Source of the DNA: a virus
Direction: 5' to 3' (one strand)
DNA: 64,000 nucleotides
Virus record (IMG/VR): IMGVR_UViG_3300032242_000488
Coordinates: 32,001-96,000 of that record
Position numbers and translations under genes: made by a program. A model generated the notes under the pieces. It was given only the letters and a program-made list of their open reading frames with translations, did not search any database and was not told the DNA's origin. Shown piece after piece: positions 16,023 to 60,739 of this stretch (position 1 is its first letter; every line of letters starts with the position of its first letter).

Positions 16023-16310
16023 TTATAATCTGCTAATATCATCTAGACTGCTAACGGGCGTGTCCCATATGTGTTTGCGTTCTACGCCACGTTTTTGGGC
16101 AAAGCGTTTGCTGTCACAGTTTTTACACACATGAAAATAGTTGTTGCTAAGTCTAGCGGGATCCATTGATCCTTTTAGTCTAGTAAAAACTTCTTTGCAG
16201 TTATCACAACGCAACACTACAATTGATCTCTTACGAACATACTCATGCTTATGCCCTAGTTTACTAGTTCTTTCATGAGTGGTTTTTTCTACATCTATTT
16301 TGATGAACAT
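16023..16310 (-). CDS. Small Zn-ribbon-like protein (CDNC...CKNC)
   Basis: Two CxxC pairs. Likely start is MFIKID at 16310, just downstream of a minus-strand TGTAAATA box (16316-23). Confidence 0.7.
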   Translation of the reverse strand: MFIKIDVEKTTHERTSKLGHKHEYVRKRSIVVLRCDNCKEVFTRLKGSMDPARLSNNYFHVCKNCDSKRFAQKRGVERKHIWDTPVSSLDDISRL

Positions 16311-16315
16311 ATAGC

Positions 16316-16351
16316 TATTTACATTAAGGTTATAAAACGGAAAGATAAATA
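16316..16351. promoter_or_regulatory. Divergent pair of late promoter boxes
   Basis: TGTAAATA on the minus strand (16316-23) and GATAAATA on the plus strand (16344-51). Confidence 0.7.
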
Positions 16352-16379
16352 TCATATACAAGACTTATTGGAGCATTCA

Positions 16380-22300: not shown

Positions 22301-25300
22301 CGGATTAATTGAAACAGTTTCTGTGTTCACTTACTACTGCTGGACAGCATACTATTCACGCAACGGTGGACAGATTCGTTCAGTTGCAGGTTCTAATGCC
22401 AACGGAGAATATGGTCTTGTTGCAGAAGGTAGCGATCCGTTTGAAGTTCCAGACTCTGTTAATCTATCTAATGATATGCCGCAGGTGGCAAGAGTTTACA
22501 AAGCAGGACCATTCTCAGCAGAGATGGCCAAAACAAAGACCACTGTTTATATTGACACATACAATTACTTGCCTTACAACGTAAGTGAAATTGAAATTAA
22601 TCATGGTTACACTATTGTTGACGGTGCAGTTACTGGTATTGGTATTACTAGATACGAAGTTGCTGGCGTGGTTGATGCTTCAGGTACCTACTTCTCAACA
22701 GCGCAACCAACAGCCGGTACTCCAACATACAACAGCGGAACTGGCAAATACAGAGTTCAATTTACGTTCCCTGCAAAAACTTATATTCCAGATACAGGTA
22801 GATACTATACTATTACCGGTAATGCTAATACAGCATATAACAATAATTTAACTGGTTGGTTATGCGTAGCGTCTGATACAAGTCATATTACTTTAGAATT
22901 TACCAGTGTTAATCCTGGAACATTTAGTACTGTAACAGCCACTACACTTAAACTAAAGAAAGGTACAATCCTTAGATTAAATCTAAACACTAGCGGAAGT
23001 AATAGTACCATTGCTAGTGGTTTGCAAGCTGACCTTGCTGACAATCAATTGGTTGTTATTAGACCAAATCAAAACTTTAAGTTCTATAATGTTGACAACA
23101 TTAGCCCAACACGACCAAGTACTGCATTAACATTTAGAGGTGATCCTTTAGATAATGCCAGTGCTCCTGTATATCGTGTACTAGCATTTGGTACTAAAGA
23201 TCCGTTAAGCGATGCAATGACGTTGACCTTTAATACAATTTATAATGCATCAAGTGCTAGTAATGTTATTACTGTACCGTCAACTGTGCCTTTACGTGCA
23301 GGTATGACATTGTCAATAGTTAGCGGAACTGGTAGCTTGTCTGATACTGCAACTGTTTTAGCCATCACTAGTGACACTACATTTACAGTCAGCCCACCTC
23401 CTGCGGTAGCTCTAGTGAACGCAACTTTACAAGCAGAGTCGCCAACACTTAACGATGTTATTCTAACATTTGACTCTGGTTATAGCTATATTGGTCTAGT
23501 CATTGATCAGGATCATAATACATTAACAGAGGCAGCGGCAGGTATAGACGGTGGAAGCACTACTCGAACACTAGGTTCACAGATCGGTGACCAATGGCTT
23601 GCTATTAGAAAAATTAATAGTGCCGGAGAATTACAACGTATATTAACTGGCCAAATGTGTTTTGGTTGGAATGGGCGTGTTCACAGAATTTCCAATTATC
23701 TAACCAGAACTATTAGTAGTACTGAAGGTTACGGCATTATACAAATTAACGAAGTCACTGATGATGCTAGTAGAGGTTACCAAGATATTAGCGGATACGG
23801 ATATACAGGTATCACTGCTCCAACACGACCAGGTGAAGGTTATAATGTTACAACGGCCACATATGATTCCGATGCTCAACTAATAACTTATACAATTAGT
23901 GGTTTAGAAACTGCTCCAAACACAGCTAGATTTACAGGTGCTATTTCTGCTATTTCTCCGATTGGAGCAACTGGTGGGACATTAACTGTTAGTAGTATTA
24001 GTTCTGGAACCATGTTAATAGGATCTACTATTACTGGTATTACTGGTACTAGTGTAACTGCTGGAACTAGAATAACTGCGCAGGTAACATGTTCTGCGGC
24101 ATCAATATATAATTCTAGTGCAACAGGAACTAGCGGATCATATACGCTAACATTAAGTGCAGGATCAGTTAACATTCTAAATGGACAATTTGTTTCTGGT
24201 AATGCGGCAATTATCGACGGCTTACCTGCTAATACATATGTGACAAATGTTAGCGGTAATACAGTTACATTAAGCAACGCATTGACTAAAAATTTCTCTG
24301 CTACTGTTTACTTCTATACTGCTGGCTTAGCTGGTATATATGCTGTTGATAAGTCGCAAACAGTATCAAGTCAAGCAATGGGTGTTCACTACACTGTCTA
24401 CGGTAACAGTAACGCTAGTTATGATATCGCTGGACCGATACTAACTTCAACTTATCAGTCATTGACTATTGCGGCTGCTAAGGCTACCGTTGTTGGAACA
24501 GTTTCAGGATTATACTTAACTGTTAACTATGTAAGTGGTAATACCATACAGCTTGGTCAAAGCGTTAGTGGTACTGGATTAAATGCAGGAACATATATTG
24601 TATCACAAAGTTCTGGAACTGCGGGCGGTGCAGGAGTGTATCTATTAAACACAGTTGCTAATATTGTAACACCGACATTTACTGGAGCTATCAATAACTT
24701 GAGCAGTGGTGCTGGTAATGTTCTAACTGTTAGCGCAGTGGCCAGCGGTACTATCTTAGTTGGTGCTGACATTCAGAAAACTGCAGGTAGTGGTGTGACC
24801 GCTGGCACTACTATTACAGGACAGCTTACTGGTGTAACTGCATTTACAACTACTGCTACAGGTACACAAGGTACATTTATATTAACAGTTGCGTCAGTTG
24901 GTACTGCACCTGCAGGAGTTATCAAAGGACAGCTAGTTACTGGTAGTGGCATTCCAAATGACACATACGTTAGCGATATTAACTTAACAGGTATTACCCT
25001 AACTAGAGCACTAACCGGTAATGCTACTGGAGGTACTTACACATTTGCAACAGCTGGATCAACCGGTACATACTCTGTAGATACTAGCCAATTGGCCACA
25101 TCGGGCGAAATGAAGGCTGTGTTTATAGCGATACCTGGGGCATTTGGTTCAACTAGTGCTACACGTATTTTCCCAACAGAGAAATTATATAATCCTTCAC
25201 TAGTACAAGATAACACAATTACTATCCGTACTGGTCTAAGTGCAGGTGAACCGGCAGACATTATTGTTAACATTAGTACTTGCCGTGTTACTGGCCACGA

Positions 25301-28300
25301 CTTTAGTGATATTGGTACAGGTGGTTATAACCAATCTAACTATCCAAATAAAGTTTATGGTCCAGGTAAAGCAAAGAATCAAAAGAAAGAAGTTGCTGAA
25401 CGCGGTACAGGTCGTGTATTCTGGGTCGCTACTGACCAAGACGGATTCTTCCGTGTAGGTCGATTCTTTACAGTTGATCAAGGTACCGGTACTGTTACAT
25501 TTGCGGCTTCATTGGCACTGAGTAACTTGGACGGTCTTGGATTTAAACGTGGTCGTGCTATTAATGAATTCTCAGATGATGACACATTCCAAGATTTATC
25601 AGATACCAAAGTTCCAACAGAACATGCCATTGACGGTTATCTAAATCGTCGATTAGGTATTGATCGCAATAACATTGTTATCAGCGAAGGAACTCTAGGA
25701 GCAGGATTTTTAGATCGTAACGGTATTCTAGAAATGAATGCCAACTTGAGACTTGGTGGACATTATGTTGAGAACTTAGGTGAAATTACACCTACTACTC
25801 CGTTCAACTATGCAGTTACAAAACGCTATGTTGATGGTCAACAAATGTCTGACGCATCAGTGGATGTTGACGGACATGTTAATAATGATCTGTTAATATA
25901 CAACTATGATAGAGCAACACCGGCATGGGTCAATGCCAGGAGCTCAAGCCCTAATAGTCAAATATATGTTGAATTAATTGCTGATAAAGAACTTGACATT
26001 CGTGTTAAACGTGAAACTATCAGCAACAGTCAAGTTAGAGAAGATGCTAACATATCACAAAATAAAGTTGATATTAACGTGGCTAATGAGCAACGCGATC
26101 AAGGCGTACTACTGTCTAGTGTACAACTGACCAGCGGATATGTAGTAGCTACAGCAGATGCTCCTACAGGTAAATCTCCACATTGCTTGGTCAAATTATC
26201 TGTAAATGGTACACCTACTGCACTATCAACTAATATTTGGTATACCGTATCAGGAAACAGCAACCTAAACTACAATGGTAAGTTCCTATGTGTAAGTTCT
26301 AGTCCACGAGTTGGCGGGGCTAATGCGTATGTAATATTAGAATATCCTGAGAATCCAGGTGTGTTTGGTGGTTCTACTACTACTGTAACTCCTTGGGAAA
26401 CAACTGTTACCACACAATTAGACCACGGACTAGTTGCAGGAGATAATATTTTAATTACCGATTCAGTTGTAGCATCAGTTAGCCTATCTGCAACAGGTTC
26501 AATTAACAGCCGTCAACTAATACTAAGTTCGCAAAATAGTGGAATTGGTACTGGACAACTAGTTACAGGTATCGGTATTCCAGACAACACCTATGTAGTA
26601 TCAGTTGATCAGGCCAACGTTACATTGAGTGAAAAATTAACTAAAGCAGTCAATGGCGTTTGTGTATTTGCATCTAATATTAATGGCAATTGGTTGATTA
26701 AATCTGTTCCGTCTACTAATTCTTTTGTAATATCTCTTGATACAAGACTGTCAGGAGCATTTACATTAACTACTGCTCGAGCAACCAAACTGGGACTATC
26801 AACATTTAACAAAAATCAATTTGCAGTGACAAATGGTTTTGTATCGTTAGAAACAAGTTCTACTGATGCAGTGACAGCCGCAATCAATGCCAATAGTAAT
26901 ATAGTAACTATATCGAGCAGTGACATGGCTAAGGTCAGCGTTGGTCATGTGATTACTATTAGATCTAATGCTAGCCTAGTGACCATTCCAACAACTGCAT
27001 TGGCCAATCCAACAGGCATTGACAACGGTGTTCAACCACAGCCAATGACTGTAACTGCCATTACCAGTGCTACTACATTTACTGTATCGGTAGCATTTAG
27101 TGGATCTGGTTCAGCGGCTAGTGCTATACTGAATATTATTTCAGGTGTACCGTTATCAAGCCTACAACAAGTTGAAACAGACAGCATTATTGGTAATCTT
27201 AGCGGAAGTAGAACTAGTCCTAATACAGTAACTAGCGGACAAATTGTCAAAGCTGGTGACGGTATTAAGAACATACAGTTTAATGATGATTTATTAGCTG
27301 ACGTAAATGTACGCGGTATTATGAGTATTATCGCAAGAGACACTGTATACCCGCACAAGAATACATATGGCGTTTGGAACGTAACTAAAACAGGTGCTGG
27401 TAATAGTGTTGTTCGTACAACCAACGAAGGTGCAATTGAAGCTACTCAATATATCTTGGATGGTAAGAAAGCTATTGATACATCAAGTGGAGCCAACATT
27501 GACTTCTTTACACCAGGATTGGCCAAGTTCTTAACAGCCAACGGTAATGACAGTGTTGCGGCCGCTCCTACTATTTCAATTGGTACATTTACAACAGCAG
27601 TTAATACCAGTGCAACAAGTAACACCAACGGTGCAATTACTGTTGTGTCTATTGCTAACATGTACATTGGACAAGAGTTATCATTCAGTGGCACACCATT
27701 TGGTGGCATTAGTGTTGGAACATACTATATTGTTTCTATAAATTCAGGTTCTAACACAATAAGCATCAGCACAAGCGACACATTGTCTCCTGTGTTTACT
27801 GGAACTACTGCTAATGGTTCAATGACTGTAACTGGTACTATTACTAACCCAGGGGTACTAAACGGTCAGGTGTATGTGCCAAACTTAAAAGCATATGGTA
27901 CTGTAACATTTAATCCTATTAATGCCAACATCAGTTTACAGCCACGTTCAACAAACGGATCAACTGGTACTATCACCATGTTCCCTGCTGTTAACGGTAG
28001 TATCAATAATATGGCAATTGGTGCGCTTTCTGAATCAACTGGTAAGTTTACCACTGTTGAGATTACCAGCGTAACAGATGCTGTTAATTCTACAACTGGT
28101 CCGTTAAAAGTTGCAGGTGGCGCAGCCATTGCTAAGAAATTATTTGTAGGCGGAAACTTTGAAGTTACTGGAAATGCACTAGTAACAGGTGACCTAACTG
28201 TTAAGGGCGTAACAACTACTGTTAATTCAAATACAGTTAACATTGCTGATAAGAATATTGTACTTGCAGGCGTTACAACATCACCAAGAATCAGTTGTGA

Positions 28301-46978: not shown

Positions 46979-47809
46979 ATGGACTATTATAATGTATTAG
47001 GCGTTCCTAGAGGTGCTAGCTCCGAGGACATTAAGAAAGCCTATAGAAAACTAGCCGCAGTCCACCATCCAGATCGTGGTGGTGATACCTCACAGTTTCA
47101 AAAACTACAAGAAGCATACGCAACACTCAGTGACGATCAAAAACGTGCCGAGTACGATAATCCGCAACCACAATTTGGTGGGCCAGGAGGATTCCACTTC
47201 CATACAGGAAATATGAATGACATATTTGGTAATATGTTTGGTGGACCGTTTGGCGGATTCCAACAACGTGGAATGATGCGTAAAAATAAATCTATCAACA
47301 TCACTGTACAGATGACTCTCAAAGATATCCTGCATGGTAAAGATATTGTTGGTAGCATCCGTTTACCGTCTGGTAGAGAACAAGCAATCCAACTTAAAAT
47401 CCCTAAGGGTGTTGCTATGGGAGATAGTATTCGATTCCACGAAATGGGCGACGATACTCATCCGCAACTACCTCGAGGCGACCTAATTGCTATTATTGAA
47501 GAAGTACCGCATCCACAGTTTGAGCGTAGAGGTCCGGACTTGTACACAACTGCACCGATATCAGTATTTGATACAATGCTAGGAACTTCTATTAAAATTC
47601 AAACTATAGATGATTCTACATTAGACATCACAGTTCCAGCAGGGATTAATCCAGGTACTACAATGTGCTGTCATCAATACGGGTTGCCAATTGGCATGCA
47701 CGAACATCGTCGAGGAAACTTATATGTTAAGATCGATGTTGTTGTTCCAAAAAATGTGGATTACCAAGATGCTGAAATTTTAAAGCAATTAAAAGCCAAG
47801 TACGGTTGA
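46979..47809 (+). CDS. dnaJ: DnaJ-class co-chaperone (type II/CbpA-like, no Zn finger)
   Basis: DYYNVLGV...IKKAYRKLA..HHPDR J-domain, G/F-rich linker, DnaJ_C (GDL, GNLYV). Confidence 0.9.
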   Translation: MDYYNVLGVPRGASSEDIKKAYRKLAAVHHPDRGGDTSQFQKLQEAYATLSDDQKRAEYDNPQPQFGGPGGFHFHTGNMNDIFGNMFGGPFGGFQQRGMMRKNKSINITVQMTLKDILHGKDIVGSIRLPSGREQAIQLKIPKGVAMGDSIRFHEMGDDTHPQLPRGDLIAIIEEVPHPQFERRGPDLYTTAPISVFDTMLGTSIKIQTIDDSTLDITVPAGINPGTTMCCHQYGLPIGMHEHRRGNLYVKIDVVVPKNVDYQDAEILKQLKAKYG

Positions 47810-47833
47810 CAACTGTTTTAATTCGTGTATAAT
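47806..47833 (+). promoter_or_regulatory. sigma70 promoter for clpA
   Basis: TTGACA (47806-11, containing the dnaJ TGA), 16 bp spacer, TATAAT (47828-33). Confidence 0.7.
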
Positions 47834-47860
47834 TAACTTATCATAACCTAAGGAAACGTA

Positions 47861-50113
47861 ATGGTAGAACCAAGTGATCAATTACAAGTAGTATTTGAAA
47901 AAGCAGTTGAAGACTGTAAAAAACTATCGCATGAGTATGTTACTCTAGAGCATTTAGTATATGCTATGCTATGCGAAGAAAAATTCTTTGAACTACTAAG
48001 TAATTTTGGTGCTGATACTACATATATCAAAACCAATTTAGAGCACTATTTGAAAAATAATCTTGACGAGATTAAAATAGAAAATGCTCCAAAAGGATTT
48101 AAACCTAAAAAGACTCAAACAGTCGAACGTGTGCTTAATCGTGCGTTCACACAGGTTCTGTTTAGTGGACGTCAAAGTATTGAACTTGTTGATGTGTTTC
48201 TAAGTATCCTTAGCGAAAAACGTAGCTATGCAGTCTACTATATCAATAAGGGCGGTATTGAACGAGAAAAATTTGCTGACTTTGTTAATAACGAACTCAA
48301 CGAAGAGGAAGAAGATACTGTAGTAGATGCCCAAAGTGAAAAAGCACTTAGAGCATTTACAACTAACCTTAACGATCAAGTCAAGAAAGCCAAGATCGAT
48401 CCTGTGATTGGTCGAGTAGAAGAACTTGAACAAATTGCATTGGGCTTAGGTCGTCGTACTAAAAATAACGTATTGTTAGTAGGTGATCCGGGTGTTGGTA
48501 AGACTGCTATCGCAGAAGGACTTGCATTTAACATCATTCACGGTGCTGTTCCAGAGTTCTTAAAAGAATACACAGTTTATAACTTAGACATTAGTTCTAT
48601 GTTAGCAGGCAGTAAATATCGCGGTGACTTTGAAGAAAGATTTAAACTTGTTCTTAAGGCATTAACTGGTAAAGGTAAAACTATTCTATTCATTGACGAA
48701 GCACACATGATTAGTGGTGCAGGTGCAGGTGGTGGAAATAGCAGTAACGACCTTGCTAACATGATGAAGCCAGCACTGAGCAAGGGCAATATCAAAGTTG
48801 TTGCTTCAACTACTTGGGAAGAATTCCGCAAGTACTTTGAAAAGGATCGTGCCTTGATGCGTCGATTCCAACGTATTACTATCGATGAACCTACTCCAGA
48901 AATGGCCATTGAGATTCTTAAGGGTATCAAGAAGTACTACGAGAAACATCACAATGCTACAATTACAGATACTGCGGTTGAGTCAGCAGTTAAACTAAGT
49001 GTCAAGTATTTACCAGATCGTAAGTTACCAGATAAGGCCATTGATTTGATTGACGTTGCTTGCTCACGTTTTAATATCAAACAAGTTGATAACAGAAATG
49101 TTGATGTAGCTGAAATTCAATTTGAACTTAGTAAAATGGCTAACTTGCCTGAAGAAACTGTCAAGGAAAAAGAAAGCGAAAATCTTGTTAACCTTGAAAA
49201 GAATCTTAAAGGTGAAGTTTACGGACAAGACGAAGCTATTACAGAAGTTGTTGACAAGATCTTTGTTGCACAAGCTGGATTGAAAGCAGAAAACAAGCCT
49301 ATTGGATCATTTGTGTTTATGGGGCCAACTGGTGTTGGTAAAACAGAAGCCGCTAAACAATTGGCTAAACAACTAGGCATCCCAATGATCCGCTTTGATA
49401 TGAGTGAATATCAAGAGAAGCACTCTGTGTCCAAGCTCATTGGATCGCCTCCGGGTTATGTTGGCTTTGAAGAAAATGCTGGCCTATTGATTACTAAACT
49501 ACAAGAGCAACCACATTGTGTTCTATTGCTAGACGAGATTGAAAAGTCACACCCAGATGTGTCAACTATCTTGTTGCAGTTAATGGACAATGGTAAGGTC
49601 ACCGGATCTAATGGTAAAGAAGCTGATTGCCGTAATGTAGTTCTTATTATGACAACTAACTTAGGTGCCGCTGATGCAGATCGAAACGTTATTGGCTTTG
49701 GTAGCCAAGAAAATGACTACGAAGATAAAGAACTTAAGAAGTTCTTTGCTCCAGAGTTCCGTAATCGTTTAGATGGTATTATTACATTCAGCAAGTTAAG
49801 CAAAGAAACAATGATCAAGATCGTTGGCAAGTTCCTAGTTGAACTTAAAACACAGGTTAACGATAAAGGTATTACTGTTACTATCAGTAATGAAGCTATT
49901 GATTACTTGGTTGAAAAAGGCTTTGATAGCAAGATGGGTGCTCGTCCGTTACAACGTGTTATTGACAAAGACGTTAAGCGTCCGTTGTCACGTGAGATGT
50001 TGTTTGGCAGTTTAAAAGATGGTGGCGCTGTTGAAATTGATGTTAATGATGACGGTATTATATTAAAAACTAAACAGAATGTATCAGAAGAAAACTACCA
50101 AGCTATTCTTTAA
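47861..50113 (+). CDS. clpA: ATP-dependent Clp protease ATP-binding subunit ClpA
   Basis: HEYVTLEHL N-domain, two AAA+ modules (GDPGVGKT; GPTGVGKT), no ClpB middle domain, VIGF ClpP-docking loop, MGARPL. Confidence 0.92.
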   Translation: MVEPSDQLQVVFEKAVEDCKKLSHEYVTLEHLVYAMLCEEKFFELLSNFGADTTYIKTNLEHYLKNNLDEIKIENAPKGFKPKKTQTVERVLNRAFTQVLFSGRQSIELVDVFLSILSEKRSYAVYYINKGGIEREKFADFVNNELNEEEEDTVVDAQSEKALRAFTTNLNDQVKKAKIDPVIGRVEELEQIALGLGRRTKNNVLLVGDPGVGKTAIAEGLAFNIIHGAVPEFLKEYTVYNLDISSMLAGSKYRGDFEERFKLVLKALTGKGKTILFIDEAHMISGAGAGGGNSSNDLANMMKPALSKGNIKVVASTTWEEFRKYFEKDRALMRRFQRITIDEPTPEMAIEILKGIKKYYEKHHNATITDTAVESAVKLSVKYLPDRKLPDKAIDLIDVACSRFNIKQVDNRNVDVAEIQFELSKMANLPEETVKEKESENLVNLEKNLKGEVYGQDEAITEVVDKIFVAQAGLKAENKPIGSFVFMGPTGVGKTEAAKQLAKQLGIPMIRFDMSEYQEKHSVSKLIGSPPGYVGFEENAGLLITKLQEQPHCVLLLDEIEKSHPDVSTILLQLMDNGKVTGSNGKEADCRNVVLIMTTNLGAADADRNVIGFGSQENDYEDKELKKFFAPEFRNRLDGIITFSKLSKETMIKIVGKFLVELKTQVNDKGITVTISNEAIDYLVEKGFDSKMGARPLQRVIDKDVKRPLSREMLFGSLKDGGAVEIDVNDDGIILKTKQNVSEENYQAIL

Positions 50114-50732
50114 CAAATACGTTTATAAGGTAGCAATCCGTACTCCGTTGTCTACGCTGTTTAGAGGTAAAAATCTTCCAAACACTAGACAACAGATTGA
50201 GGTATTGTCTGAACGTTTTGATAACAAGCGTGTATCGTCTACTAGTATAACCAATGGGTGGCGTAGTAGACAACAGGCTACATCAACAGATGTGTTTGTT
50301 GGACTACTATTACTAGACCAATTAGACTCGTTAAGTGATTTTACACTCAGGGTTGAAAATAGTACACTAGGGTTATACTGTAATGATTTAGACTTTATCT
50401 CAAAAGTTACCAATATTGTTGGTATTAATGTAGAAGAAATTGCAGTACCTGAAACCGATGACGTCCGTGACTTTTTGTTGTCAAATCCCAAGTCCATTAT
50501 CCGCGGAGAGTATACACACAAGTATAAAGTAACGGTTAATGCGCTATGGGAATCTGCTGATAACTTTAAAGCATGGGCTGTTAAATTGCCTAAAATTAAG
50601 ACTACTAATAACAAATATCGCTTTGGCGGTCACTTTTATGTAGCAGATGAAAAGACTCTGAGCCTTTGCCACATCTTTTTAGCTGATAAAATACGCAAAG
50701 TAGAACAGCTAGTCACTACAACGGAAATTTAA
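50079..50732 (+). CDS. Hypothetical protein (217 aa)
   Basis: ORF overlapping the clpA end; T.KLFFNKYVYK N-terminus. Confidence 0.65.
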   Translation: MYQKKTTKLFFNKYVYKVAIRTPLSTLFRGKNLPNTRQQIEVLSERFDNKRVSSTSITNGWRSRQQATSTDVFVGLLLLDQLDSLSDFTLRVENSTLGLYCNDLDFISKVTNIVGINVEEIAVPETDDVRDFLLSNPKSIIRGEYTHKYKVTVNALWESADNFKAWAVKLPKIKTTNNKYRFGGHFYVADEKTLSLCHIFLADKIRKVEQLVTTTEI

Positions 50733-50748
50733 CCTAACTTCAAAATAG

Positions 50749-50756
50749 CATAAATA
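50749..50756 (+). promoter_or_regulatory. Late promoter box CATAAATA heading the head-cargo cluster
   Basis: Intergenic NNTAAATA. Further copies at 54786-93, 59326-33 and 60032-39. Confidence 0.7.
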
Positions 50757-50779
50757 CTCTATAATAAGGTATCTGTGCT

Positions 50780-51124
50780 ATGAGAATGGATGAAGTTGCA
50801 AACTCAGTGATTAATTTAGAAGAAATAGATCTGCCTGCAGATTTACATTTTTTCATGCATAACGATCACAATTTTTACCGCAAGGTGTTTTTTCCTATGA
50901 TTAGCAAGGTTAAAGCACACATTAAAGCAGGTAATCGTTGCCACGATGGCGTATTCCGTCCTGTAGTTGATACTGCCGCAGAAACATACTGCAAAAAGTT
51001 TAATATTCCCGACAATCACAAGTCTGTATTCACAGATGTTGATCGTGATGAGCTAGCCCGTAAGATTTTTGGTCAAGAAAAAGATCGTATTGAGCAGGGC
51101 GACTATGATGGAGACGACCAATGA
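50780..51124 (+). CDS. Hypothetical late protein (114 aa)
   Basis: AAGG SD; DL.FFM.ND..FYRK.FFP motif. Confidence 0.7.
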   Translation: MRMDEVANSVINLEEIDLPADLHFFMHNDHNFYRKVFFPMISKVKAHIKAGNRCHDGVFRPVVDTAAETYCKKFNIPDNHKSVFTDVDRDELARKIFGQEKDRIEQGDYDGDDQ

Positions 51125-51882
51125 TTTTATTAGAAGGCGGTAATGTATTTGCCAATGCAACTCCATTCGATCACAAAGATGTTCCTGCAATACTTAAAAC
51201 AATCAACGGCGCACTAGCCGGTACCGGTATTACTGCTATTCCCGTCGGTTCGGCTGCTACACCAAAACACGGTCATACTAGCGGAGATATGGACGTTATT
51301 GTAGACGAACAGGCAGTACTAAACTACTTCAAAGCTAAGGATGCCAAAGCAGGCCGTAAGGCACTTAATGATTATATCAGCAGTAAAGGTTTAGAAACTG
51401 CACAAAGTGGTATCAATGTACACGTAAACGTTCCTGTTAACGGAGAGTTTCATCAAGTAGACGTTATGGTATCAGCTAATGCTGAGAAAGTGTCAAAATT
51501 TCACACCCATGCTATTCCAGATAACAGTCCTTACAAGGGCGTTAACAAACAACTAATGATGGCCATACTTGCCAAACAAAAGAACTATATGTGGTCAGCA
51601 TGGCAAGGTCTGTTTAGTCGTACACCAGAAGGTAAGAAGGGTGAACTAGTTGCCGATAACTTGGATGATGTTGCCAAACACCTGTTTGGTCCTAACGGTA
51701 GTGCTAAAGATTTAGGAAGTGTCGAAGCCATCCTTGCCGCATTACCTAAACCAGAAGCAGATGCACTATTGGCCAAAGCCAAAGAAGATGCTAACTGGAA
51801 AGAAGTACCAGTCAAGCAAGAAAGTTATCGTATTGGAACTAACGAATGGTTCCGTCATATGTTGGATAAGGTACAGCTATGA
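51121..51882 (+). CDS. Pol-beta-superfamily nucleotidyltransferase
   Basis: PVGSA.......SGDMDVIVD (GS...DxD) with a third acidic residue in HQVDVM; N-terminal MILLE|GGNVF. Confidence 0.7.
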   Translation: MILLEGGNVFANATPFDHKDVPAILKTINGALAGTGITAIPVGSAATPKHGHTSGDMDVIVDEQAVLNYFKAKDAKAGRKALNDYISSKGLETAQSGINVHVNVPVNGEFHQVDVMVSANAEKVSKFHTHAIPDNSPYKGVNKQLMMAILAKQKNYMWSAWQGLFSRTPEGKKGELVADNLDDVAKHLFGPNGSAKDLGSVEAILAALPKPEADALLAKAKEDANWKEVPVKQESYRIGTNEWFRHMLDKVQL

Positions 51883-53021
51883 GACTAAGACAACTGTTTA
51901 AAGAAGCAGAAGCACCTAAACAGTTAGGTCGAGCATTTAACCACCTAGAAGATCTAGTTTTCTTTCACGGTACTAAAGGCACACTTGAAGCACTAAGTCA
52001 TATTAAAGACTTTGCCAGTCAAGAAGGCGCACAGAGTATTCGTATGAAGTGGGACGGCAATCCACAAATATATTGGGGTCGTGCAGAAGCCAACGGTCCT
52101 TTAATATTAGCAGGACACAATGGTTGGAGCAAAGGTGCTGTAACAGACAGCCCAGAAGCTGTACAAGATTTTATTGCTAATAAATCTGGTAGTCCAAAGA
52201 CTCCAGAAGAAAAAGCAAGCCGTGATAAGTTTGCTAGCGAGTTCGCTAGCCTATATCCCCTGTTTGATAAAGCAACACCACGTGACTTTGTGGGTTTTGT
52301 CTATGCTGACGGTTTGTTCTTACAAAAGCCTGCGGCAGACAAAGAAGGTGTATACACATTCTGTCCTAATCCAAAGAGTCAAACTTGCTATCACGTTCGT
52401 GCTAATAGTCCACTAGGTAAACGCATCAGTGGCGCACAAGTAATGGTTGTGGGACATGCGTTCTTTCCAGAGTTTGGTATGCCTGATGCTAGTCAAAAGC
52501 CTATTAGTGACTTTAGTCAGTTTAACAGCAATCCACAACTAATCGTTCTTGGTCCAATATACAACAGCAAGCCTGTTAAGATTGACACTACCGCAGTTGA
52601 TGCCGTAGAACAGTTTGCACAAGCACACGGTCCACAGATGGACAGTTTCCTACAAGGACTTCCGGGACTAGGCGACCTAAAAAATATTATCTACACTTAT
52701 GTAAATCAAACAGCCAAAGCAAAACAGTTAGACTCGCTAAGTCCAAAACATTTTACAGAATGGTTGGCAGCTTCAAAGACTAGTCCGGGCAAACAACAAA
52801 AGATTAATGATCTAGTGGCGGCTAATCCAACAGCACTAGCAACTATCTTTACATTAGTAAAACGTATACAAGCAATGAAAGATGATATCATTGATCAAAT
52901 CGAAGGCGAACAAGGTGAGATATGGGATACGCACGGCGAAGGTCGTGTGCGTTATGCAGATCAAACTAAACAGCTAGGTCACGTTAAACTTGTACCTCGC
53001 AAGCGTTGGACACCGACCTAA
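51879..53021 (+). CDS. ATP-dependent ligase-like (covalent nucleotidyltransferase) protein, DUF6267-like
   Basis: Motif I KWDG, motif III-like YADGLF, motif IV GEGRV, motif V KLV; N-terminal MRLRQLFKE. Confidence 0.6.
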   Translation: MRLRQLFKEAEAPKQLGRAFNHLEDLVFFHGTKGTLEALSHIKDFASQEGAQSIRMKWDGNPQIYWGRAEANGPLILAGHNGWSKGAVTDSPEAVQDFIANKSGSPKTPEEKASRDKFASEFASLYPLFDKATPRDFVGFVYADGLFLQKPAADKEGVYTFCPNPKSQTCYHVRANSPLGKRISGAQVMVVGHAFFPEFGMPDASQKPISDFSQFNSNPQLIVLGPIYNSKPVKIDTTAVDAVEQFAQAHGPQMDSFLQGLPGLGDLKNIIYTYVNQTAKAKQLDSLSPKHFTEWLAASKTSPGKQQKINDLVAANPTALATIFTLVKRIQAMKDDIIDQIEGEQGEIWDTHGEGRVRYADQTKQLGHVKLVPRKRWTPT

Positions 53022-53030
53022 GGACTTATT

Positions 53031-54071
53031 ATGAAACTAAGACAACTATTTGAAGGAATGGGGCAGGAAGTTGCCATTATATTCGGTCGCTTTAACCCTC
53101 CGCATAAAGGACATAGAGCCGCATGGGAACTTGCCGCAAAGAGTCCTATTTGGTATGTAGGTACTAATGAAAGTACAGTAGGTCCAAAGGATCCATTACC
53201 ATACGGCATCAAAGTAGAAGCAATGACTGCCATATGGCCAGAAGTTGAAGGACATATTATTGCAGAAACTTCATGGCTAACACTAGCTAGCCTAGTATAT
53301 GAGAAGCACGGAGATGTTACACTATTCTGCCTAACTGACGAAGATTGGGTTACTAAGACTATTGTTCAATACAATGGTAAAGAAGGTGCTCATGGTTTCT
53401 ATAACTTTAAAACTATTAAACAAAAGCCAACACCGCGTTTAAGTTCAGCTACTGCTTTACGTGACGCAGTAACAAAAGGCGATCGTGAAGCATTTGCTAA
53501 TGCCGCGGGTGTTCCAGCAGATACTCCTGTAGCAGGTAAACCATTCTTTGATCTTGTAGCAGAATACCTGCTACCATACTCTAATGCACCTGTAAAGAAA
53601 ACTGCAAAGAAGAAAGTGGCTGCACCTGTAGAAGGTGTAGAAGAAAGTATGTTGCCAGCTAGTGCGTTTGCAGGCAGTTCTAAATACAAAATGGGACAAG
53701 CAGGACAATGGCGTAACGACGGTCCTAGTAAGAATCGTCCGGCACGTCGAGGCGACCTAGTTGGATCCACAGATGAGTCCGAAGGTAGTCCGGAAGGTCT
53801 TCCACACTTAACAAAGACCATGCTAACACACATTGTACAGCAAGTTGGCTCAGAGGGCGCACACGCTATTATTAAAAGTTTAGAGTGGGGTGATGGTGCT
53901 AGTAAAGAACTTCTACATTTGATTGTTCAAGACATAGAAGACGATATAAAAGCCAACGACTTTAGACAAGAAGATGCAGCCGGCGTAGGTATCATTACTA
54001 AGCAAAACTCAACTGTAGATGTAAACAAAGGCACACCACGCAAAAATCTTAAAGCATTTAAACTAGCATGA
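53031..54071 (+). CDS. HIGH-superfamily (cytidylyl/adenylyl-transferase-like) enzyme with appended peptide modules
   Basis: IIFGRFNPPHKGH, KDPL, SSATALR (KMSKS-equivalent); N-terminal MKLRQLFE. Confidence 0.8.
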   Translation: MKLRQLFEGMGQEVAIIFGRFNPPHKGHRAAWELAAKSPIWYVGTNESTVGPKDPLPYGIKVEAMTAIWPEVEGHIIAETSWLTLASLVYEKHGDVTLFCLTDEDWVTKTIVQYNGKEGAHGFYNFKTIKQKPTPRLSSATALRDAVTKGDREAFANAAGVPADTPVAGKPFFDLVAEYLLPYSNAPVKKTAKKKVAAPVEGVEESMLPASAFAGSSKYKMGQAGQWRNDGPSKNRPARRGDLVGSTDESEGSPEGLPHLTKTMLTHIVQQVGSEGAHAIIKSLEWGDGASKELLHLIVQDIEDDIKANDFRQEDAAGVGIITKQNSTVDVNKGTPRKNLKAFKLA

Positions 54072-54355
54072 AACAATACAAGATAACAAGTCAAGATTTA
54101 ATTCAGGATAGTCCTGATGATTGTTATCTTGCACCTGAAGATCCAATCCATGAACTAAAGATATTATCTGGCATGGGCGGACTAGGCGCCGAAGCTAGAC
54201 TACATGAGTATCGTGCTAATCAAGGCAGTAATATAAGTGTTACTGGAGATAGCAAAGGCGAACTAATGAAGAAGCATAACATACAACCTGGAACTAAAGA
54301 ATGGTTTAAGTTATGGTTCAGTCGTCCGTACCTTACAGGAGAACCTCCCGTATGA
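54068..54355 (+). CDS. Hypothetical protein (95 aa)
   Basis: ATGA-coupled; C-terminal IQPGTKEWFKLWFSRP. Confidence 0.7.
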   Translation: MKQYKITSQDLIQDSPDDCYLAPEDPIHELKILSGMGGLGAEARLHEYRANQGSNISVTGDSKGELMKKHNIQPGTKEWFKLWFSRPYLTGEPPV

Positions 54356-54486
54356 AGCTACGTGAATTATTTGAACATAAAAAAGGTGTTCGTGCCGTTA
54401 AATATAATAAGAAACCAAAAGCGTTTATTGAACCTAAAAAACCAATCAAACCTAAAAAGGTAGGAACAAAACATGAAAATGAGTGA
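54352..54486 (+). CDS. 44-aa Lys-rich peptide with capsid-targeting-like N-terminus, not in the ORF track
   Basis: MKLRELFE|HKKGVRAVKYNKKPKAFIEPKKPIKPKKVGTKHENE; ATGA overlap with the upstream stop. Confidence 0.7.
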   Translation: MKLRELFEHKKGVRAVKYNKKPKAFIEPKKPIKPKKVGTKHENE

Positions 54487-54790
54487 ACTATTAGAAGCAA
54501 AAACTAAAAAAGCTGAGGCACCTAAGCCACGTAATTTTGTGGCTAAAAATGCTATCAACACAGGCGCTGGCGCACACAAAGACAAAAAGAAAGCCGCTAA
54601 ACAGGGCGATACTAAGCACAAGAATAAAGATCTTGAAATGGCAGAATCTGCTAGTGCAGGTGCTACTAGTGCGGCTAACGTAGGTGTAGGTCCTGTATAC
54701 AAGAACAAAAAACCTAAGATGCAAAAACCCGGAACTAACGCTTTAGACGGCGATAACTTAATGACCGGTGGCAGTATTGTAAAACGATAA
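54473..54790 (+). CDS. Basic putative internal head protein
   Basis: MKMSELLE|...PRNFVAKNA...GAGAHKDKKK...MAE|SASAGATS. Confidence 0.75.
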   Translation: MKMSELLEAKTKKAEAPKPRNFVAKNAINTGAGAHKDKKKAAKQGDTKHKNKDLEMAESASAGATSAANVGVGPVYKNKKPKMQKPGTNALDGDNLMTGGSIVKR

Positions 54791-54815: not shown

Positions 54816-55766
54816 ATGCAACCACAAGTACAAATGCAACAACCAGACGATGAGGGCGGAATGGCCCGTGCAGACCTATATAGAGCTGCCAAGCACTCTA
54901 TGAAACTGTTTCAAATGATTCAGGATAATCAGCCACTAGAAGGTTGGGTACAAGCAAAGATCACCAAGGCTGCTGACTATCTAGACAGCATCTATCACTA
55001 CATGGAATATCAAGTAAAGTTTGGTCAAGGCGCAGTTGCTGCCAGCGTTGACGACATTACTGGAGACATGGAAACTGCCGCTCGTGCCGCAGAAGAAGAT
55101 GAAGAAAAAACTGATATGGAAGAATCTATGAACTACGAACAAAAACTTCAAGCACTATTAGAAAGTGCTGTTAAAAAAGCCAAAAAAGATTACGACGGTG
55201 ACGGCAAAATCGAAACTGGCAAGGATGAATATTTAGGTAGCCGAATCGCTGCCGCTAAGAAAGCTGGCAAGATGAAAGAAGGAACTTGTTCTGTCTGCCA
55301 TAAAGATCCGTGCAAGTGTAAAGATGTTAAAGAAGGTTTCCCAACTGTTGACGATGCAAAGAAAAATGCACAGGGTACAGCTGGAATGAAGGCAGGTGAA
55401 AAGAAAAAGTCTAGCACTGGTGGCACTATCGAAAAGACCAAGACTGGTATTAAACATACTGCTGGTAAGAATTATAGTGGCAAAGGCGTTGCAGAAGCTG
55501 ATGAAAAATGCAATCATAGTGCTAAAGGTAAAAAGTGTCCAGTACACGGCCTAAAAGAATGTGGTACTATGATGGCCTATGAAGCTGCCAAGCCAAGTGC
55601 AGGAATGAGCAAAGGTGCTAAGTCGGCATTAGTCAAGAAAGCTAAGAAGGGCGGAGATATTGGTAAGCCAGGTAAGAGTTTTGACAAAGTAGCCAAGGCT
55701 GCTGGTGGTGGCGAAAAAGGCAAAAAGATTGCCGCTGCCGCTATGTGGAAGAACGCGGCCAAGTAA
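54816..55766 (+). CDS. Modular putative internal head protein (316 aa)
   Basis: Late box at 54786. LEGWVQAKITKAADYL domain, DYDGDG motif, two Cys clusters and a Lys-rich tail, separated by x-x-E sites. Confidence 0.7.
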   Translation: MQPQVQMQQPDDEGGMARADLYRAAKHSMKLFQMIQDNQPLEGWVQAKITKAADYLDSIYHYMEYQVKFGQGAVAASVDDITGDMETAARAAEEDEEKTDMEESMNYEQKLQALLESAVKKAKKDYDGDGKIETGKDEYLGSRIAAAKKAGKMKEGTCSVCHKDPCKCKDVKEGFPTVDDAKKNAQGTAGMKAGEKKKSSTGGTIEKTKTGIKHTAGKNYSGKGVAEADEKCNHSAKGKKCPVHGLKECGTMMAYEAAKPSAGMSKGAKSALVKKAKKGGDIGKPGKSFDKVAKAAGGGEKGKKIAAAAMWKNAAK

Positions 55767-55778
55767 GGAATAGACAAA

Positions 55779-56741
55779 ATGGATATGAAGAAAATATTAC
55801 AAGCCTTTGACGGGGCCGCTGAGAAGAAGCCTGTGCAAGGTGCTAATGATATGAAGAAGTTCCTATCCATTGTGAAGGAAAGTGCTAATCCATATACACC
55901 TGCAAAAGAATCTGTTATTACAAGTTTTGAAGAAGGGTCAGTAGGCGGTGATGCTAATGCATTTTTGTTAGCCGCTGATACTATTCAAGATGAAGTAATG
56001 GCACAGGTTAACAAGATCAAGATCAATGCAGACGAAGCTAGCTTACGTGATATGATGGACAAGTTCAATGCTTTCATGACTGCTTATCATAATGTTGGTA
56101 AAGGCATTCTACAACCAGACATGTTTAATGATGAGATGGGCGAAAGCGTAGAAGAAGGCCGTCACGGATATGATGACAGTGGTATGAGTCTTGCACCGGG
56201 CAACGATGAAGGCCCTGATAGTTGGGACTACAGTGCGGCACATGATAGGATTGGCGCAGGCGATCCTAGACCAAAAAGAAGTGCATATCAAGCACCGCAG
56301 GATAAACCACAAATGGTTGGCATGTTCTTTTATAATGTACAACCAGGACAAGAAAATGAAGCAGCCGCATTAGGTATTAAACAAACTAAAAGCGGCAAAT
56401 GGGCAAAAACAAAATATAGCACAAGCGGACGCACATTTGGCATGCAAAAAGATCAAGCTGACAAGGCATTTGGTGTTGGCAAATGGTGGGCTCCTAAAAC
56501 AGAAAGCGTACAGTCAGTAGCAGAAATGGATAAGAGTCAAACTCCTCCAGGACGTGATGGTAGCAATAGTGATTCAGATGCTGGTAAGAAAGAATACTAC
56601 GGCAAATCTGTTAAGGCTAACGACGTTGTTAAAAGTGCTACTAAGAGTCTTGACAAAGAAATGAAGAAGGCGCATGCCAAAGAAGGCCTAAGTTTTAAAG
56701 ATTATGTTAACTTAGCAGAAGCTAAAAAGGGACTTGAATAA
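55779..56741 (+). CDS. Modular putative internal head protein (320 aa)
   Basis: AAGGA SD; repeated DMKK[IF]L motif; low-complexity modules delimited by VKE/FEE/VEE/VAE. Confidence 0.65.
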   Translation: MDMKKILQAFDGAAEKKPVQGANDMKKFLSIVKESANPYTPAKESVITSFEEGSVGGDANAFLLAADTIQDEVMAQVNKIKINADEASLRDMMDKFNAFMTAYHNVGKGILQPDMFNDEMGESVEEGRHGYDDSGMSLAPGNDEGPDSWDYSAAHDRIGAGDPRPKRSAYQAPQDKPQMVGMFFYNVQPGQENEAAALGIKQTKSGKWAKTKYSTSGRTFGMQKDQADKAFGVGKWWAPKTESVQSVAEMDKSQTPPGRDGSNSDSDAGKKEYYGKSVKANDVVKSATKSLDKEMKKAHAKEGLSFKDYVNLAEAKKGLE

Positions 56742-57130
56742 TGAGATTATTAGCCTTAGTAGTAGCAGTATCTTTAACCGGCTGTGCTAGCATTAAGGAA
56801 ATGATTCCTAGTTTTCAGGATCCTAATCAGTCAGCTAAGATTATAGATGTACGTCAAAGTGTAGCACAGTTGGATTGTAAACAACCACATGCTCCACAAG
56901 TTAAACAAATAAAAGATAACTTAGAATGGTTTGAGCTATATAGTACTAGCAAAGGCGAAAGACAAAACGATGTATTACGTTTGATCAAACCAATGCAAGA
57001 AACAGTAGATGATTTTTACAAGCGCAGTACAAGTGAAAAGCAGGGTAGCGATACCTATTGCGAGATTAAGAAAAAGTTAATGACTACACAGGCCGAACGT
57101 GCGGCGAGTGCAGTACTAGGGAGATTCTAA
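56741..57130 (+). CDS. Lipoprotein
   Basis: Signal peptide with LTGC lipobox; two further Cys. Confidence 0.8.
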   Translation: MRLLALVVAVSLTGCASIKEMIPSFQDPNQSAKIIDVRQSVAQLDCKQPHAPQVKQIKDNLEWFELYSTSKGERQNDVLRLIKPMQETVDDFYKRSTSEKQGSDTYCEIKKKLMTTQAERAASAVLGRF

Positions 57131-60044: not shown

Positions 60045-60428
60045 ATGAGAGCAAAAGAATTTATTAAAGAAGCTAAAAAAGGTCATATGCTAAAGATTGA
60101 TCCAACTCACAAAGCTGGATTAAAAAATGCTATGACGTTTCCCGATCAAAACTCAAGTACAGGGTCAGCATATCTTAACTGGAGAATGGGTATTGCTCTA
60201 GCAGGTGCACCTGACTATCCTACAAAAATGGCCGCTGATAACTGGATCGGTGGAGACCCATTAGTTAGCACGTATACTCAGGAAGAATACGATATGGTAG
60301 TAGCTGCCAATGATGTAATCGGCGGTGGGCCACTGGAAAACTGGTCTGGCAAACGTAGCGAAGAACTTCCAGGTACACATAAAACAAGTCCAGTAGCTAA
60401 ACCAAAACGTAACAAGTACGGCGTATGA
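60045..60428 (+). CDS. Putative internal head protein
   Basis: MRAKEFIKE| N-terminus; late box 5 nt upstream; C-terminal SPVAKPKRNKYGV. Confidence 0.7.
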   Translation: MRAKEFIKEAKKGHMLKIDPTHKAGLKNAMTFPDQNSSTGSAYLNWRMGIALAGAPDYPTKMAADNWIGGDPLVSTYTQEEYDMVVAANDVIGGGPLENWSGKRSEELPGTHKTSPVAKPKRNKYGV

Positions 60429-60739
60429 AAATAAACGAGCTGTTAACAGAAGCCCCGATCGACTTTGATCCTAACGAGCCGATGAATCCGCTAGTACATA
60501 GCCACCAAGGTGCTAATCCTGGCAAGCTACAGTATCGTATGTTACGTGCGGCAGGTCAGTTAAAGGATCTTGCCAAGAGAGCAGAACATGCTAGTCCCTT
60601 AGAATGGGAAATGATTGCCAAAAACTTTTCAGAACTAGCAATGAACGTTGAACAGATTAGACATGGTCTAGAAGAACTTGCCGCACAACGTAAAAAAGGT
60701 GGCGTCCGTTCAAGAGGCATAGATCCAACTATTGGATAA
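60425..60739 (+). CDS. Putative internal head protein
   Basis: MKINELLTE| N-terminus; helical body. Confidence 0.7.
   Translation: MKINELLTEAPIDFDPNEPMNPLVHSHQGANPGKLQYRMLRAAGQLKDLAKRAEHASPLEWEMIAKNFSELAMNVEQIRHGLEELAAQRKKGGVRSRGIDPTIG

Follow-up and report, generated by a model that had tools for sequence, protein, structure and literature searches.

What could a phage do with three adjacent enzymes of three different folds that all transfer nucleotides? The question is raised by a window of 64,000 nucleotides (bases 32001-96000 of the 167.5-kb IMG/VR record IMGVR_UViG_3300032242_000488, which is judged 46% complete). The source is a giant uncultured lake phage, a T4-related jumbo phage whose relatives reach 364.5 kb, at which size they are judged complete. 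The original prediction for this stretch described three linked open reading frames (ORFs), here called genes A, B and C, coding for a pol-beta-type nucleotidyltransferase, a ligase-like protein and a transferase with a HIGH motif. They are present on the + strand, with an ATGA overlap between A and B and a 9-bp gap between B and C, and the motifs quoted for them are real, being conserved in 43, 26 and 24 homologues of A, B and C, respectively (coordinates are collected in Table 1). The results presented below point to a module that may mend breaks in polynucleotides, in which A would be a minimal polymerase of family X, B a ligase of a divergent type and C an enzyme resembling nicotinamide mononucleotide adenylyltransferases (NMNATs).

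Three genes that travel together

The linkage of the three genes is best seen in relatives of the phage. Among 80 IMG/VR loci retrieved with B as query, 40 carry B and C, 24 carry A and B, 12 carry all three and 4 carry B alone, so that synteny is found in 76 of the 80. C lies directly downstream of B in 52/80 loci, and A directly upstream in 36/80. The genes also occur as fusions, in the orders A-B, B-A, C-A-B (P0419, P0486, P0503), A-B-C (P0487), A-C (P0367) and B-C, and the PHROG 455 profile consists of B plus C. Fifty homologues of A have more than one domain; DUF6267, the family of B, is found in 21 of these and CTP_transf_like (cytidylyltransferase-like) in 4. Because the fusions come in several orders, A, B and C are, as judged from these gene arrangements, one functional unit. 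The prediction of a linked unit of three nucleotidyl-transfer enzymes with three folds is thus borne out by the fusions and the synteny, and the co-occurrence of all three genes in relatives, on which it had been made to depend, is seen in the 12 loci mentioned and in the C-A-B and A-B-C fusions.

The complete 364.5-kb relative has all three genes, with A adjoining B. In the cultured Kyanoviridae S-CAM3 and Melnitz, B and C are adjacent and are found among primase, helicase, polymerase and ribonucleotide reductase genes; the 360-residue gene upstream of DUF6267 in S-CAM3 is not a homologue of A (hhalign). One C-A-B fusion adjoins a Mre11/Rad50-like gene, and one B-A fusion is flanked by tail sheath and terminase genes. 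A predicted complex of B and A scored 0.42 (best control, 0.00), with contacts that agree by at least 66% between runs and a predicted local distance difference test (pLDDT) value of 85 for the partner. The mark set by this complex was reached by 58 of 80 solved complexes and by 2 of 110 mismatched pairs, and at scores of 0.60 or lower by only 7 of the 80 and both mismatches. The prediction therefore gives weak support to a contact between A and B.

Gene A fits the pol-beta signature hG[GS]x9-13Dh[DE]h plus third carboxylate, with G43-S44, eleven intervening residues, D56-M-D58 and then D114 (in Q112-V-D114). In 43 homologues, down to 25% identity, G43, D56, D58, Q112 and D114 are invariant and S44 is nearly so. 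These homologues belong to 281 relatives obtained from a search of 1.84 billion representatives (the family comprises about 700 clusters at 90% identity), and they were used to build an AlphaFold2 model with a pLDDT of 94. Compared by Foldseek with the PDB, the model gave more than 300 matches at E<=1e-3, human Pol lambda and Pol beta being the first (E 1.6e-7, about 200 columns). An exhaustive structural comparison with VIA-align over 48,161 chains placed family-X polymerases in all of the top eight positions, with both palm and thumb covered. The match to the palm-thumb part of Pol beta has a Z of 12.0 over 174 residues, with a root-mean-square deviation (rmsd) of 3.5, and begins at Pol beta residue 142. 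It is followed by Pol lambda (Z 11.0, 159 residues), African swine fever virus (ASFV) PolX (Z 11.0, 156/176 residues, rmsd 3.0), Leishmania Pol beta (Z 10.6), Thermus PolX (Z 10.5) and TdT (Z 10.5). By contrast, TUTases, CD-NTases, poly(A) polymerases and the CCA-type enzyme match only the palm (about 95-110 residues) or have an rmsd above 5, with Z no higher than 9.2. In BFVD, the matches begin with uncharacterised proteins of uncultured Caudovirales and of the jumbo phage Atu_ph07, and continue with ‘DNA polymerase family X’ proteins of nucleocytoplasmic large DNA viruses (NCLDV) and ASFV O174L.

From its predicted structure, then, A is a minimal family-X-like enzyme of the ASFV PolX type. 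The original assignment to the pol-beta superfamily holds; the kinds of enzyme it named, CCA-adding and cyclic-nucleotide, do not, as the family-X match extends over palm and thumb. A role as a CCA-adding or cGAS-like enzyme was rejected on the same grounds, the matches being palm-only or of high rmsd. Sequence comparison alone gives little: the profile of the A family has just a weak match to a TUTase palm in the PDB (E 0.02), a search of PDB sequences with the single sequence gave nothing meaningful, and tblastn of A against phage records gave no match. One relative of 1002 residues (P0482) carries an A homologue at its end, together with DUF5661, a Tad3 (Thoeris inhibitor) domain and a faint match to a crAss cargo protein.

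Gene B belongs to DUF6267, on which no paper was found in a literature search. Across 26 homologues, with identities as low as 23%, seven of its residues (K57, D59, G60, E354, G355, V357 and K370) never vary, and D144 and Y171 are nearly invariant at the places expected for motifs III and IIIa. The AlphaFold2 model (pLDDT 91.5) shows a mixed alpha/beta core, a disordered start (residues 1-17), and a helical insertion of 106 residues that interrupts the nucleotidyltransferase domain. All VIA-align matches of more than 145 residues (145-192 aligned) are covalent nucleotidyltransferases, with Z of 4.7-6.3 and rmsd of 4-5.5. These include NgrRnl (Z 6.3, 182 residues), TbREL1 (5.8) and T4 Rnl2 (5.7), then T7 ligase and LigIV (both 5.3), T4 DNA ligase (5.2), ASFV ligase (5.0) and the vaccinia capping enzyme (4.9). 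Since the invariant residues fall exactly on motifs I, IV and V of ligases, and the modelled fold agrees, B is best described as a putative divergent ligase-type covalent nucleotidyltransferase, a claim that the fold by itself would not carry. As motif IV has EG rather than DG, and there is no recognisable Ia domain, B may use ATP.

The profile of B found low-complexity or chance matches only in the PDB, and the single sequence found nothing meaningful there. Residues 305-355 match an NCBIfam model of an HhH-GPD repair protein weakly, at 18.8 bits, which is far under the cut-off. A role for B as the replicative DNA ligase of this phage is ruled out by a canonical PF01068 ligase, although such a role is possible in cyanophages. 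The families of B and C each comprise more than 1,000 clusters at 90% identity, and both are also found in cultured cyanophages and in phages of Methylophilales.

Gene C consists of about 195 conserved N-terminal residues, about 115 hypervariable residues and a conserved stretch of 35 at the end, a tail that has no second copy in the genome. R20, P23, G27, H28 and R144 are invariant in 24 homologues, including those of two cultured phages. The (H/T)xGH motif is P24-H25-K-G27-H28, and reads TTGH in S-CAM3 and Melnitz. C scores 19.5 bits against PF01467, under the cut-off of 21 bits that is passed by homologues in Melnitz (27.4), L069 (24.6) and P0503 (23.4), and it scores far below the cut-offs of the NCBIfam NMNAT models. 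A PDB search with the full-length profile found low-complexity or chance matches, and one with the single sequence nothing meaningful; trimming to the N-terminal domain was required before the profile matched M. jannaschii NMNAT (E 9e-4), H. influenzae NadR (1.5e-3) and Francisella NadM (2.5e-3), with PPAT at about 1. As this similarity is limited to the first 50 or so residues, ‘NMNAT-like’, of the NadM/NadR type, is a best guess.

With phage NadM and NadR, C shares a HIGH motif of the GRFxPxHxGH type and an SxTxxR motif, and in one relative a Zeta/AAA_33 P-loop kinase is fused behind the C domain, as in NadR. It differs from them in having no Nudix domain, in scores below the Pfam and NCBIfam cut-offs, in its hypervariable C-terminal region, in a complete relative that is without NadV, and in its linked or fused partners, which are a polymerase and a ligase rather than enzymes of salvage. 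The N-terminal domain of C also heads ORFs of 800 to about 2100 residues in relatives (L066:9127-15492, L072:3065-8710, L061:6430-8832). These long ORFs contain weak HIPIP-like and amidoligase-like stretches, or a Zeta-toxin/AAA_33 kinase, and resemble polyvalent injected proteins.

The leader peptide and the question of packaging

According to the original prediction, each of the three proteins begins with a leader ending in Glu and all are tagged for packaging. This is true of B and C as far as the leader goes. In A, the presumed leader MILLE is the start of a conserved domain block (L-x-EGGN-x-F), which is internal in fusions, and some homologues start with MGGN. The leader pattern is M-[K/R]-hydrophobic-x-[E/Q]-hydrophobic-hydrophobic, followed shortly by hydrophobic-x-Glu. 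Within 9 kb it stands at the start of five ORFs, namely B, C and three small ones, and in the whole 167.5-kb record no other ORF begins with it; a weaker match, MILQNIYE, lies elsewhere in the record on a 68-residue frame. On homologues of B and C in the 80 loci the leader is conserved down to about 40% identity, and the linker that follows it varies. The codons differ between copies, which indicates that selection acts on the peptide, and the DNA upstream of the five genes is unrelated, so that the leader does not belong to a regulatory element repeated at the DNA level. In other lineages, many homologues of A have a leader-like extension, MRFxE[LFI], before the A domain; the tag thus travels with all three families, with A only in those lineages.

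The three small ORFs with leaders resemble analogues of the T4 internal proteins; one is very basic and has a DUF7230/phrog_1359 motif. In some relatives, sequences of the small ORFs are appended to the C ORF.

A known counterpart to such a leader is the capsid targeting sequence (CTS) of T4, a short N-terminal peptide common to unrelated, fast-evolving and clustered proteins (IPI, IPII, IPIII and Alt). It is cleaved after Glu by gp21, and its cargo includes the Alt enzyme, which is injected (PMC3012670). Residues 4 and 7 matter for targeting and residues 8 and 10 for cleavage, while the propeptide of Alt has 7 residues (PMC9026906). T4 IPII and IPIII start with MKTYQEFIAE and IPI with MKTFKEFTS; among the relatives of the present genes, the C homologue of Melnitz starts with MKKFSEIIEA and some B relatives with MRYQELIEA. 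The leaders of B and C have the same length and hydrophobic spacing as the T4 sequence, a likeness at the level of pattern only. A prohead protease of the gp21 type is encoded by the phage (Peptidase_S77, 93.1 bits, E 1.4e-27; record G000:163072-163518). The cargo in T4 consists of anti-restriction proteins and an ADP-ribosyltransferase, whereas here it would consist of enzymes of nucleic-acid repair. On this comparison, B and C may be packaged into the head, at what we consider to be roughly even odds; of the earlier claim of packaging, a T4-like leader on two of the proteins and a suitable protease stand, and the tag on A does not.

Three points speak against packaging. The first is that A has no leader in this phage. 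The second is that the genes belong to an operon that looks early and lies on the replication side, downstream of perfect sigma-70 promoters (46915 and 47806). The third is the L-x-x-L-F core of the leader, which we take to resemble clamp-binding peptides, so that a contact with the clamp or with a chaperone is possible. In the strongest of the alternative explanations, nothing is packaged and the leader is a motif for protein contact, for example with the sliding clamp or with the ClpA-like and DnaJ chaperones encoded just upstream, the enzymes acting early or in the middle of infection at replication forks. Its case is helped by the fact that no promoter of equal strength precedes A, by clamp loader and family-B DNA polymerase (PolB) genes on the flanks of the region, and by the replication genes around B and C in Kyanoviridae. 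Such an explanation has more difficulty with the closeness of the leader to the T4 sequence in length, position and spacing, and with its hydrophobic-x-Glu ending, which is like that of gp21 sites. It also has to account for the same leader on small basic ORFs like internal proteins, for the gp21 homologue, and for the B-A fusion between tail sheath and terminase genes. All considered, we place it a little short of an even chance.

A proposed break-mending module and its alternatives

The reading that we prefer, and to which we give about an even chance of being right, is that the module mends breaks in polynucleotides, with gap filling by A, sealing by B, an adenylyl donor from C, and B and C possibly loaded into the head. 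A would extend a 3'-OH, whether within a gap or at an end, by the missing nucleotide or nucleotides, and B, as a divergent lysine-adenylate ligase, would seal the resulting nick. C would make or regenerate the adenylyl donor, most simply nicotinamide adenine dinucleotide (NAD+) from nicotinamide mononucleotide (NMN) and ATP. Its product would serve B or a NAD-dependent ligase of the host, or C could recycle the NMN released by a ligase that uses NAD+. The substrate is more probably DNA (incoming or replicating phage DNA with damage or nicks, for instance) than RNA, which is possible too. The leaders of B and C would be removed after Glu by the gp21-type protease, and the enzymes loaded into the head and injected with the DNA, A riding on B. 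What is said here about substrates, reaction order, the part played by C and packaging is inferred. DNA is favoured because of the fold of A, the replication and recombination genes nearby and the viral precedents, and the palm-and-thumb match of A to family X speaks for gap filling from a template together with ligation.

A bolder form of this reading, which seems to us rather unlikely as a whole, is that large aquatic T4-like phages inject a capsid-loaded kit of family-X polymerase, DUF6267 ligase and an NMNAT-like recharger of the donor. DNA damaged by sunlight, nicked or cut by restriction would be patched before any phage gene is expressed. Relatives would carry the kit as one polyprotein or as the head of giant multi-domain injected proteins; A would be the first family-X polymerase lineage of tailed phages, and DUF6267 a new ligase family. 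No paper was found that combines PolX, bacteriophage, virion and base excision repair.

Precedents for the pairing of A and B exist in other viruses, and it is from those of Phaeocystis globosa virus (PgV) and ASFV that the two are read as gap filling and nick sealing. In ASFV, a set of base excision repair enzymes (PolX, ligase and AP endonuclease) mends the viral genome (PMC9353306). The set, comprising PolX pO174L, the ATP-dependent ligase pNP419L and the AP endonuclease pE296R, resembles the module in combining a family-X polymerase of palm and thumb only with a virus ligase. It differs in belonging to a eukaryotic host and an NCLDV, in having a canonical DNA ligase with an OB domain and an AP endonuclease, and in lacking a transferase of the HIGH family. 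The similarity between A and ASFV PolX is structural only, being undetectable in sequence. Repair enzymes of ASFV have been reported in its virions.

PgVPolX is a working fusion of polymerase, lyase and NAD+-dependent ligase, the parts of which act in concert on gapped DNA (PMC5537341). It is like the A-B and B-A fusions in joining a Pol-beta-like core and a ligase in one polypeptide, and the NAD+ dependence of its ligase provides a rationale for an NMNAT partner. The PgVPolX ligase, however, is LigA-like, whereas B belongs with the ATP-ligase/Rnl-like family with EG in motif IV; moreover, PgVPolX has dRP/AP lyase activity, while A is without the 8-kDa lyase domain, and PgVPolX has no NMNAT-like third domain. 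Bacterial LigD, which acts in non-homologous end joining, is comparable to the C-A-B and A-B-C fusions as a polymerase, a ligase and an end-processing module whose domain order varies between species. Its polymerase has the archaeo-eukaryotic primase fold, however, and its third module is a phosphoesterase; it works with Ku, for which no search was made in the phage.

A number of results weigh against the break-mending reading. A has no match in Pfam, PHROG or NCBIfam, PolX models included, and family X itself includes the template-independent TdT. A also lacks the 8-kDa dRP-lyase and fingers (helix-hairpin-helix) domains of Pol beta and lambda, an absence shared by ASFV PolX, which is why A resembles the minimal form. 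For B, the fold matches are low and tied (Z at most 6.3), Foldseek finds nothing in the PDB at E<=1e-3 (best E 0.11), and there is no match to a ligase Pfam model. B has neither an OB domain, which is missing from RNA ligases too, nor motif VI, and only 10 more residues follow motif V. A canonical ATP-dependent DNA ligase (PF01068, E 3.9e-23) is already encoded by the phage, as it is by the complete relative, and the top-ranked matches of B are RNA ligases, which favours RNA. For C, the similarity to NMNATs covers about 50 N-terminal residues at E of about 1e-3, and NadV/NAPRTase (PF04095) has no match in the 167.5-kb record or in the complete relative. As to the unit itself, A and C are each absent from many loci, and in the complete relative C lies 120 kb away from A and B. 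That relative also has no AP endonuclease above cut-off, just a sub-threshold EndoIV-like match, and no LigA-type ligase, NadV, Rnl2-type ligase, RtcB or ExoIII-type nuclease.

The prominence of RNA ligases among the matches of B makes RNA repair the next alternative to be considered. B would then be an RNA ligase like Rnl2 or Rnl5, A would restore 3' nucleotides on cleaved tRNA or other RNA, with or without a template, and C would give NAD+ for the healing of RNA ends or an adenylyl donor, the whole countering anticodon nucleases or other RNases. NgrRnl, TbREL1, T4 Rnl2 and Trl1 are the highest-ranked long matches of B, and, according to a review, phages combine RNA ligases with nucleotidyltransferases, template-dependent or not, that restore bases (PMC9503650). 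As the complete relative has a canonical DNA ligase and, by Pfam, no ligase of the Rnl2 or RtcB type, B could fill the slot of an RNA ligase (a search with the Rnl1 model was uninformative, as the model matched nothing, controls included). Nonetheless, A matches family X far better than it does CCA-adding enzymes (Z 5.9) or the TUTases, which match in the palm only, and the Z of B for RNA and DNA ligases differ by less than 1 and are tied. The module has no kinase-phosphatase enzyme for end healing. Furthermore, the surroundings point to DNA, with B and C in a DNA replication module in Kyanoviridae and the C-A-B fusion next to a Mre11/Rad50-like gene. RNA repair is regarded as a doubtful explanation, though one with a definite case.

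A role in counter-defence through NAD+ or nucleotide signals, in which C rebuilds NAD+ after NADase defences while A and B act on a nucleotide signal, producing or removing it, and not on polynucleotides, is improbable. NMNATs are indeed the nearest matches of C; one A homologue is fused to the Tad3 Thoeris-inhibitor domain, and phage NadM and NadR are known tools of counter-defence (PMC9503650). However, NadM is reported always to accompany NadV in phages (PMC9503650), and the lack of NadV in the complete relative weakens a role of C in NAD+ salvage alone. CD-NTases compare with A at Z of 6.3-8.3, in the palm only or with rmsd above 5, and templated polymerases are closer; the ligase motifs of B are invariant, and the Tad3 fusion is a single case. 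Modification of mRNA ends, by B as a capping-type guanylyltransferase and A as a polymerase tailing the 3' ends of phage transcripts, is very improbable. In its favour, ligases have motifs I, III, IV and V in common with capping enzymes, and poly(A) polymerases are among the pol-beta nucleotidyltransferases. Poly(A) polymerases, however, match A in the palm only (Z 6.3-6.6) or with rmsd above 6, whereas family X reaches Z of 10.5-12 across palm and thumb together; B is without an OB domain and motif VI, and a scan of neighbouring genes revealed neither a triphosphatase nor a methyltransferase. Protein nucleotidylation, a further option in the original prediction, received no support.

Genome setting and significance

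The phage encodes a gp44-type clamp loader, a family-B DNA polymerase, DnaJ, a ClpA-like ATPase and tail-fibre-like proteins. Searched at the nucleotide level, 50,697 phage records contain no match to the region, and no cultured phage among them shares its DNA. Upstream of B, the 217-residue gene listed in Table 1 is found in 40/80 loci and the 114-residue gene in 32/80; the latter overlaps A by ATGA, and abuts B directly where A is absent. The conserved array can be described as the 217-residue ORF, the 114-residue ORF, A (an optional insert), B, C, a 95-residue ORF and two ORFs of about 320 residues. Five of these neighbours (217, 114, 95, 316 and 320 residues, at 50079-51124, 54068-54355 and 54816-56741) are arranged in the same order around B and C in many relatives, and may be further parts of the module. 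No family was found for the 217- and 114-residue ORFs. The former has no detectable relationship to the upstream genes of S-CAM3 or Melnitz, and matches unnamed viral clusters only in the ESM Atlas.

Table 1. Features in and around genes A, B and C, with positions in the window
Feature	Positions	Strand	Evidence or remark
Perfect sigma-70 consensus promoter	47806..47833	+	TTGACA-16-TATAAT, 12/12; nearest strong promoter upstream of the cluster
Two conserved upstream ORFs, 217 aa (50079-50732) and 114 aa (50780-51124)	50079..51124	+	Travel with B and C
Gene A, 253 aa, predicted family-X-polymerase-like nucleotidyltransferase, palm and thumb	51121..51882	+	AlphaFold2 model, VIA-align, Foldseek
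Catalytic core of A: G43-S44 (51247-51252), D56-x-D58 (51286-51294), D114 (51460-51462)	51247..51462	+	Conservation
Gene B, 380 aa, DUF6267, putative divergent ligase-type (lysine-nucleotide) nucleotidyltransferase	51879..53021	+	PF19782 E 3.4e-16; start overlaps A stop (ATGA)
Leader of B, MRLRQLFKE	51879..51905	+	Residues 1-17 pLDDT <50; pattern kept in B homologues
B motif I, K57-W-D-G60, predicted nucleotidyl-lysine	52047..52058	+	K57, D59, G60 invariant
B helical insertion, residues 237-342, between motifs IIIa and IV	52587..52904	+	Five helices in AlphaFold2 model
B motifs IV (E354-G-R-V357) and V (K370, in K370-L-V)	52938..52988	+	E354, G355, V357, K370 invariant
Gene C, 346 aa	53031..54071	+	ORF, 9 bp (53022-53030) after B
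Leader of C, MKLRQLFE	53031..53054	+	Pattern shared; compare T4 IPII/IPIII
C N-terminal domain, residues 1-195, HIGH superfamily, NadM/NadR-NMNAT-like	53031..53615	+	PHROG 3041 ‘cytidyltransferase’ E 1.8e-13
C HIGH motif, G19-RFNPPHKG-H28 (from F18)	53085..53114	+	R20, P23, G27, H28 invariant
C second motif, S138-SATALR-144, ISxTxxR-like	53442..53462	+	R144 invariant
C hypervariable middle, residues ~196-310	53616..53960	+	Unalignable between relatives >80% identical in the N-terminal domain
C conserved C-terminal tail (EDAAGVGIITKQN.T.DVNKGT.RK) with stop codon	53961..54071	+	Kept across relatives despite variable middle
Small ORF, 44 aa, leader MKLRELFE	54352..54486	+	Leader pattern
Small basic ORF, 105 aa, leader MKMSELLE	54473..54790	+	phrog_1359 E 5.7e-8
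ORF, 104 aa, leader MKINELLTE	60425..60739	+	Leader pattern

Directly upstream of the leader-bearing cluster (46979-50113, + strand) are genes for a full DnaJ, with J domain and C-terminal domain, and for a ClpA/ClpB-type double AAA+ unfoldase of 750 residues, each behind one of the two perfect (12/12) sigma-70 promoters. On the + strand from the promoter at 47806 to C there is no G+C-rich, long-stem site resembling a terminator. The late-promoter octamer of T4, TATAAATA, has 1 copy in the whole window, about 7 being expected by chance; being rarer than chance, it is not usable for the timing of the genes, and the late promoter of this phage probably differs from the T4 type. Further upstream are two giant ORFs of 3577 and 4736 residues (1720-12453 and 16275-30485, + strand) without a convincing Pfam domain, the only match being a sub-marginal one to Phycobilisome. 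They are followed by tail-fibre-like genes (BppL_N, Mtd_N, He_PIG, CBM_5_12). Downstream of the cluster, a 129-residue ORF (56741-57130, + strand) starts with a lipoprotein-type signal, a hydrophobic stretch followed by LTGC.

Overall, the analysis gives a testable function to three abundant and unannotated families of uncultured phages. Among viruses, a 2022 review of phage DNA polymerases lists family X for ASFV only (PMC8775771), and the results for A suggest that tailed phages have family-X polymerases of their own. The recurrent fusion of polymerase, ligase and NMNAT-like domains points to strand sealing that is coupled with the supply of NAD+ or another adenylyl donor, a coupling that, as far as we know, has not been described before. 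Should the leader prove to be a genuine capsid-targeting signal, cargo delivery of the T4 type would extend to enzymes of repair and to phages of quite another group, and the leader would provide a short tag for loading proteins into their capsids. On the preferred reading, the module is a variant of the PolX-ligase repair seen in other viruses, unusual in its NMNAT-like enzyme, its previously unassigned ligase family and its possible tag for delivery in the capsid.

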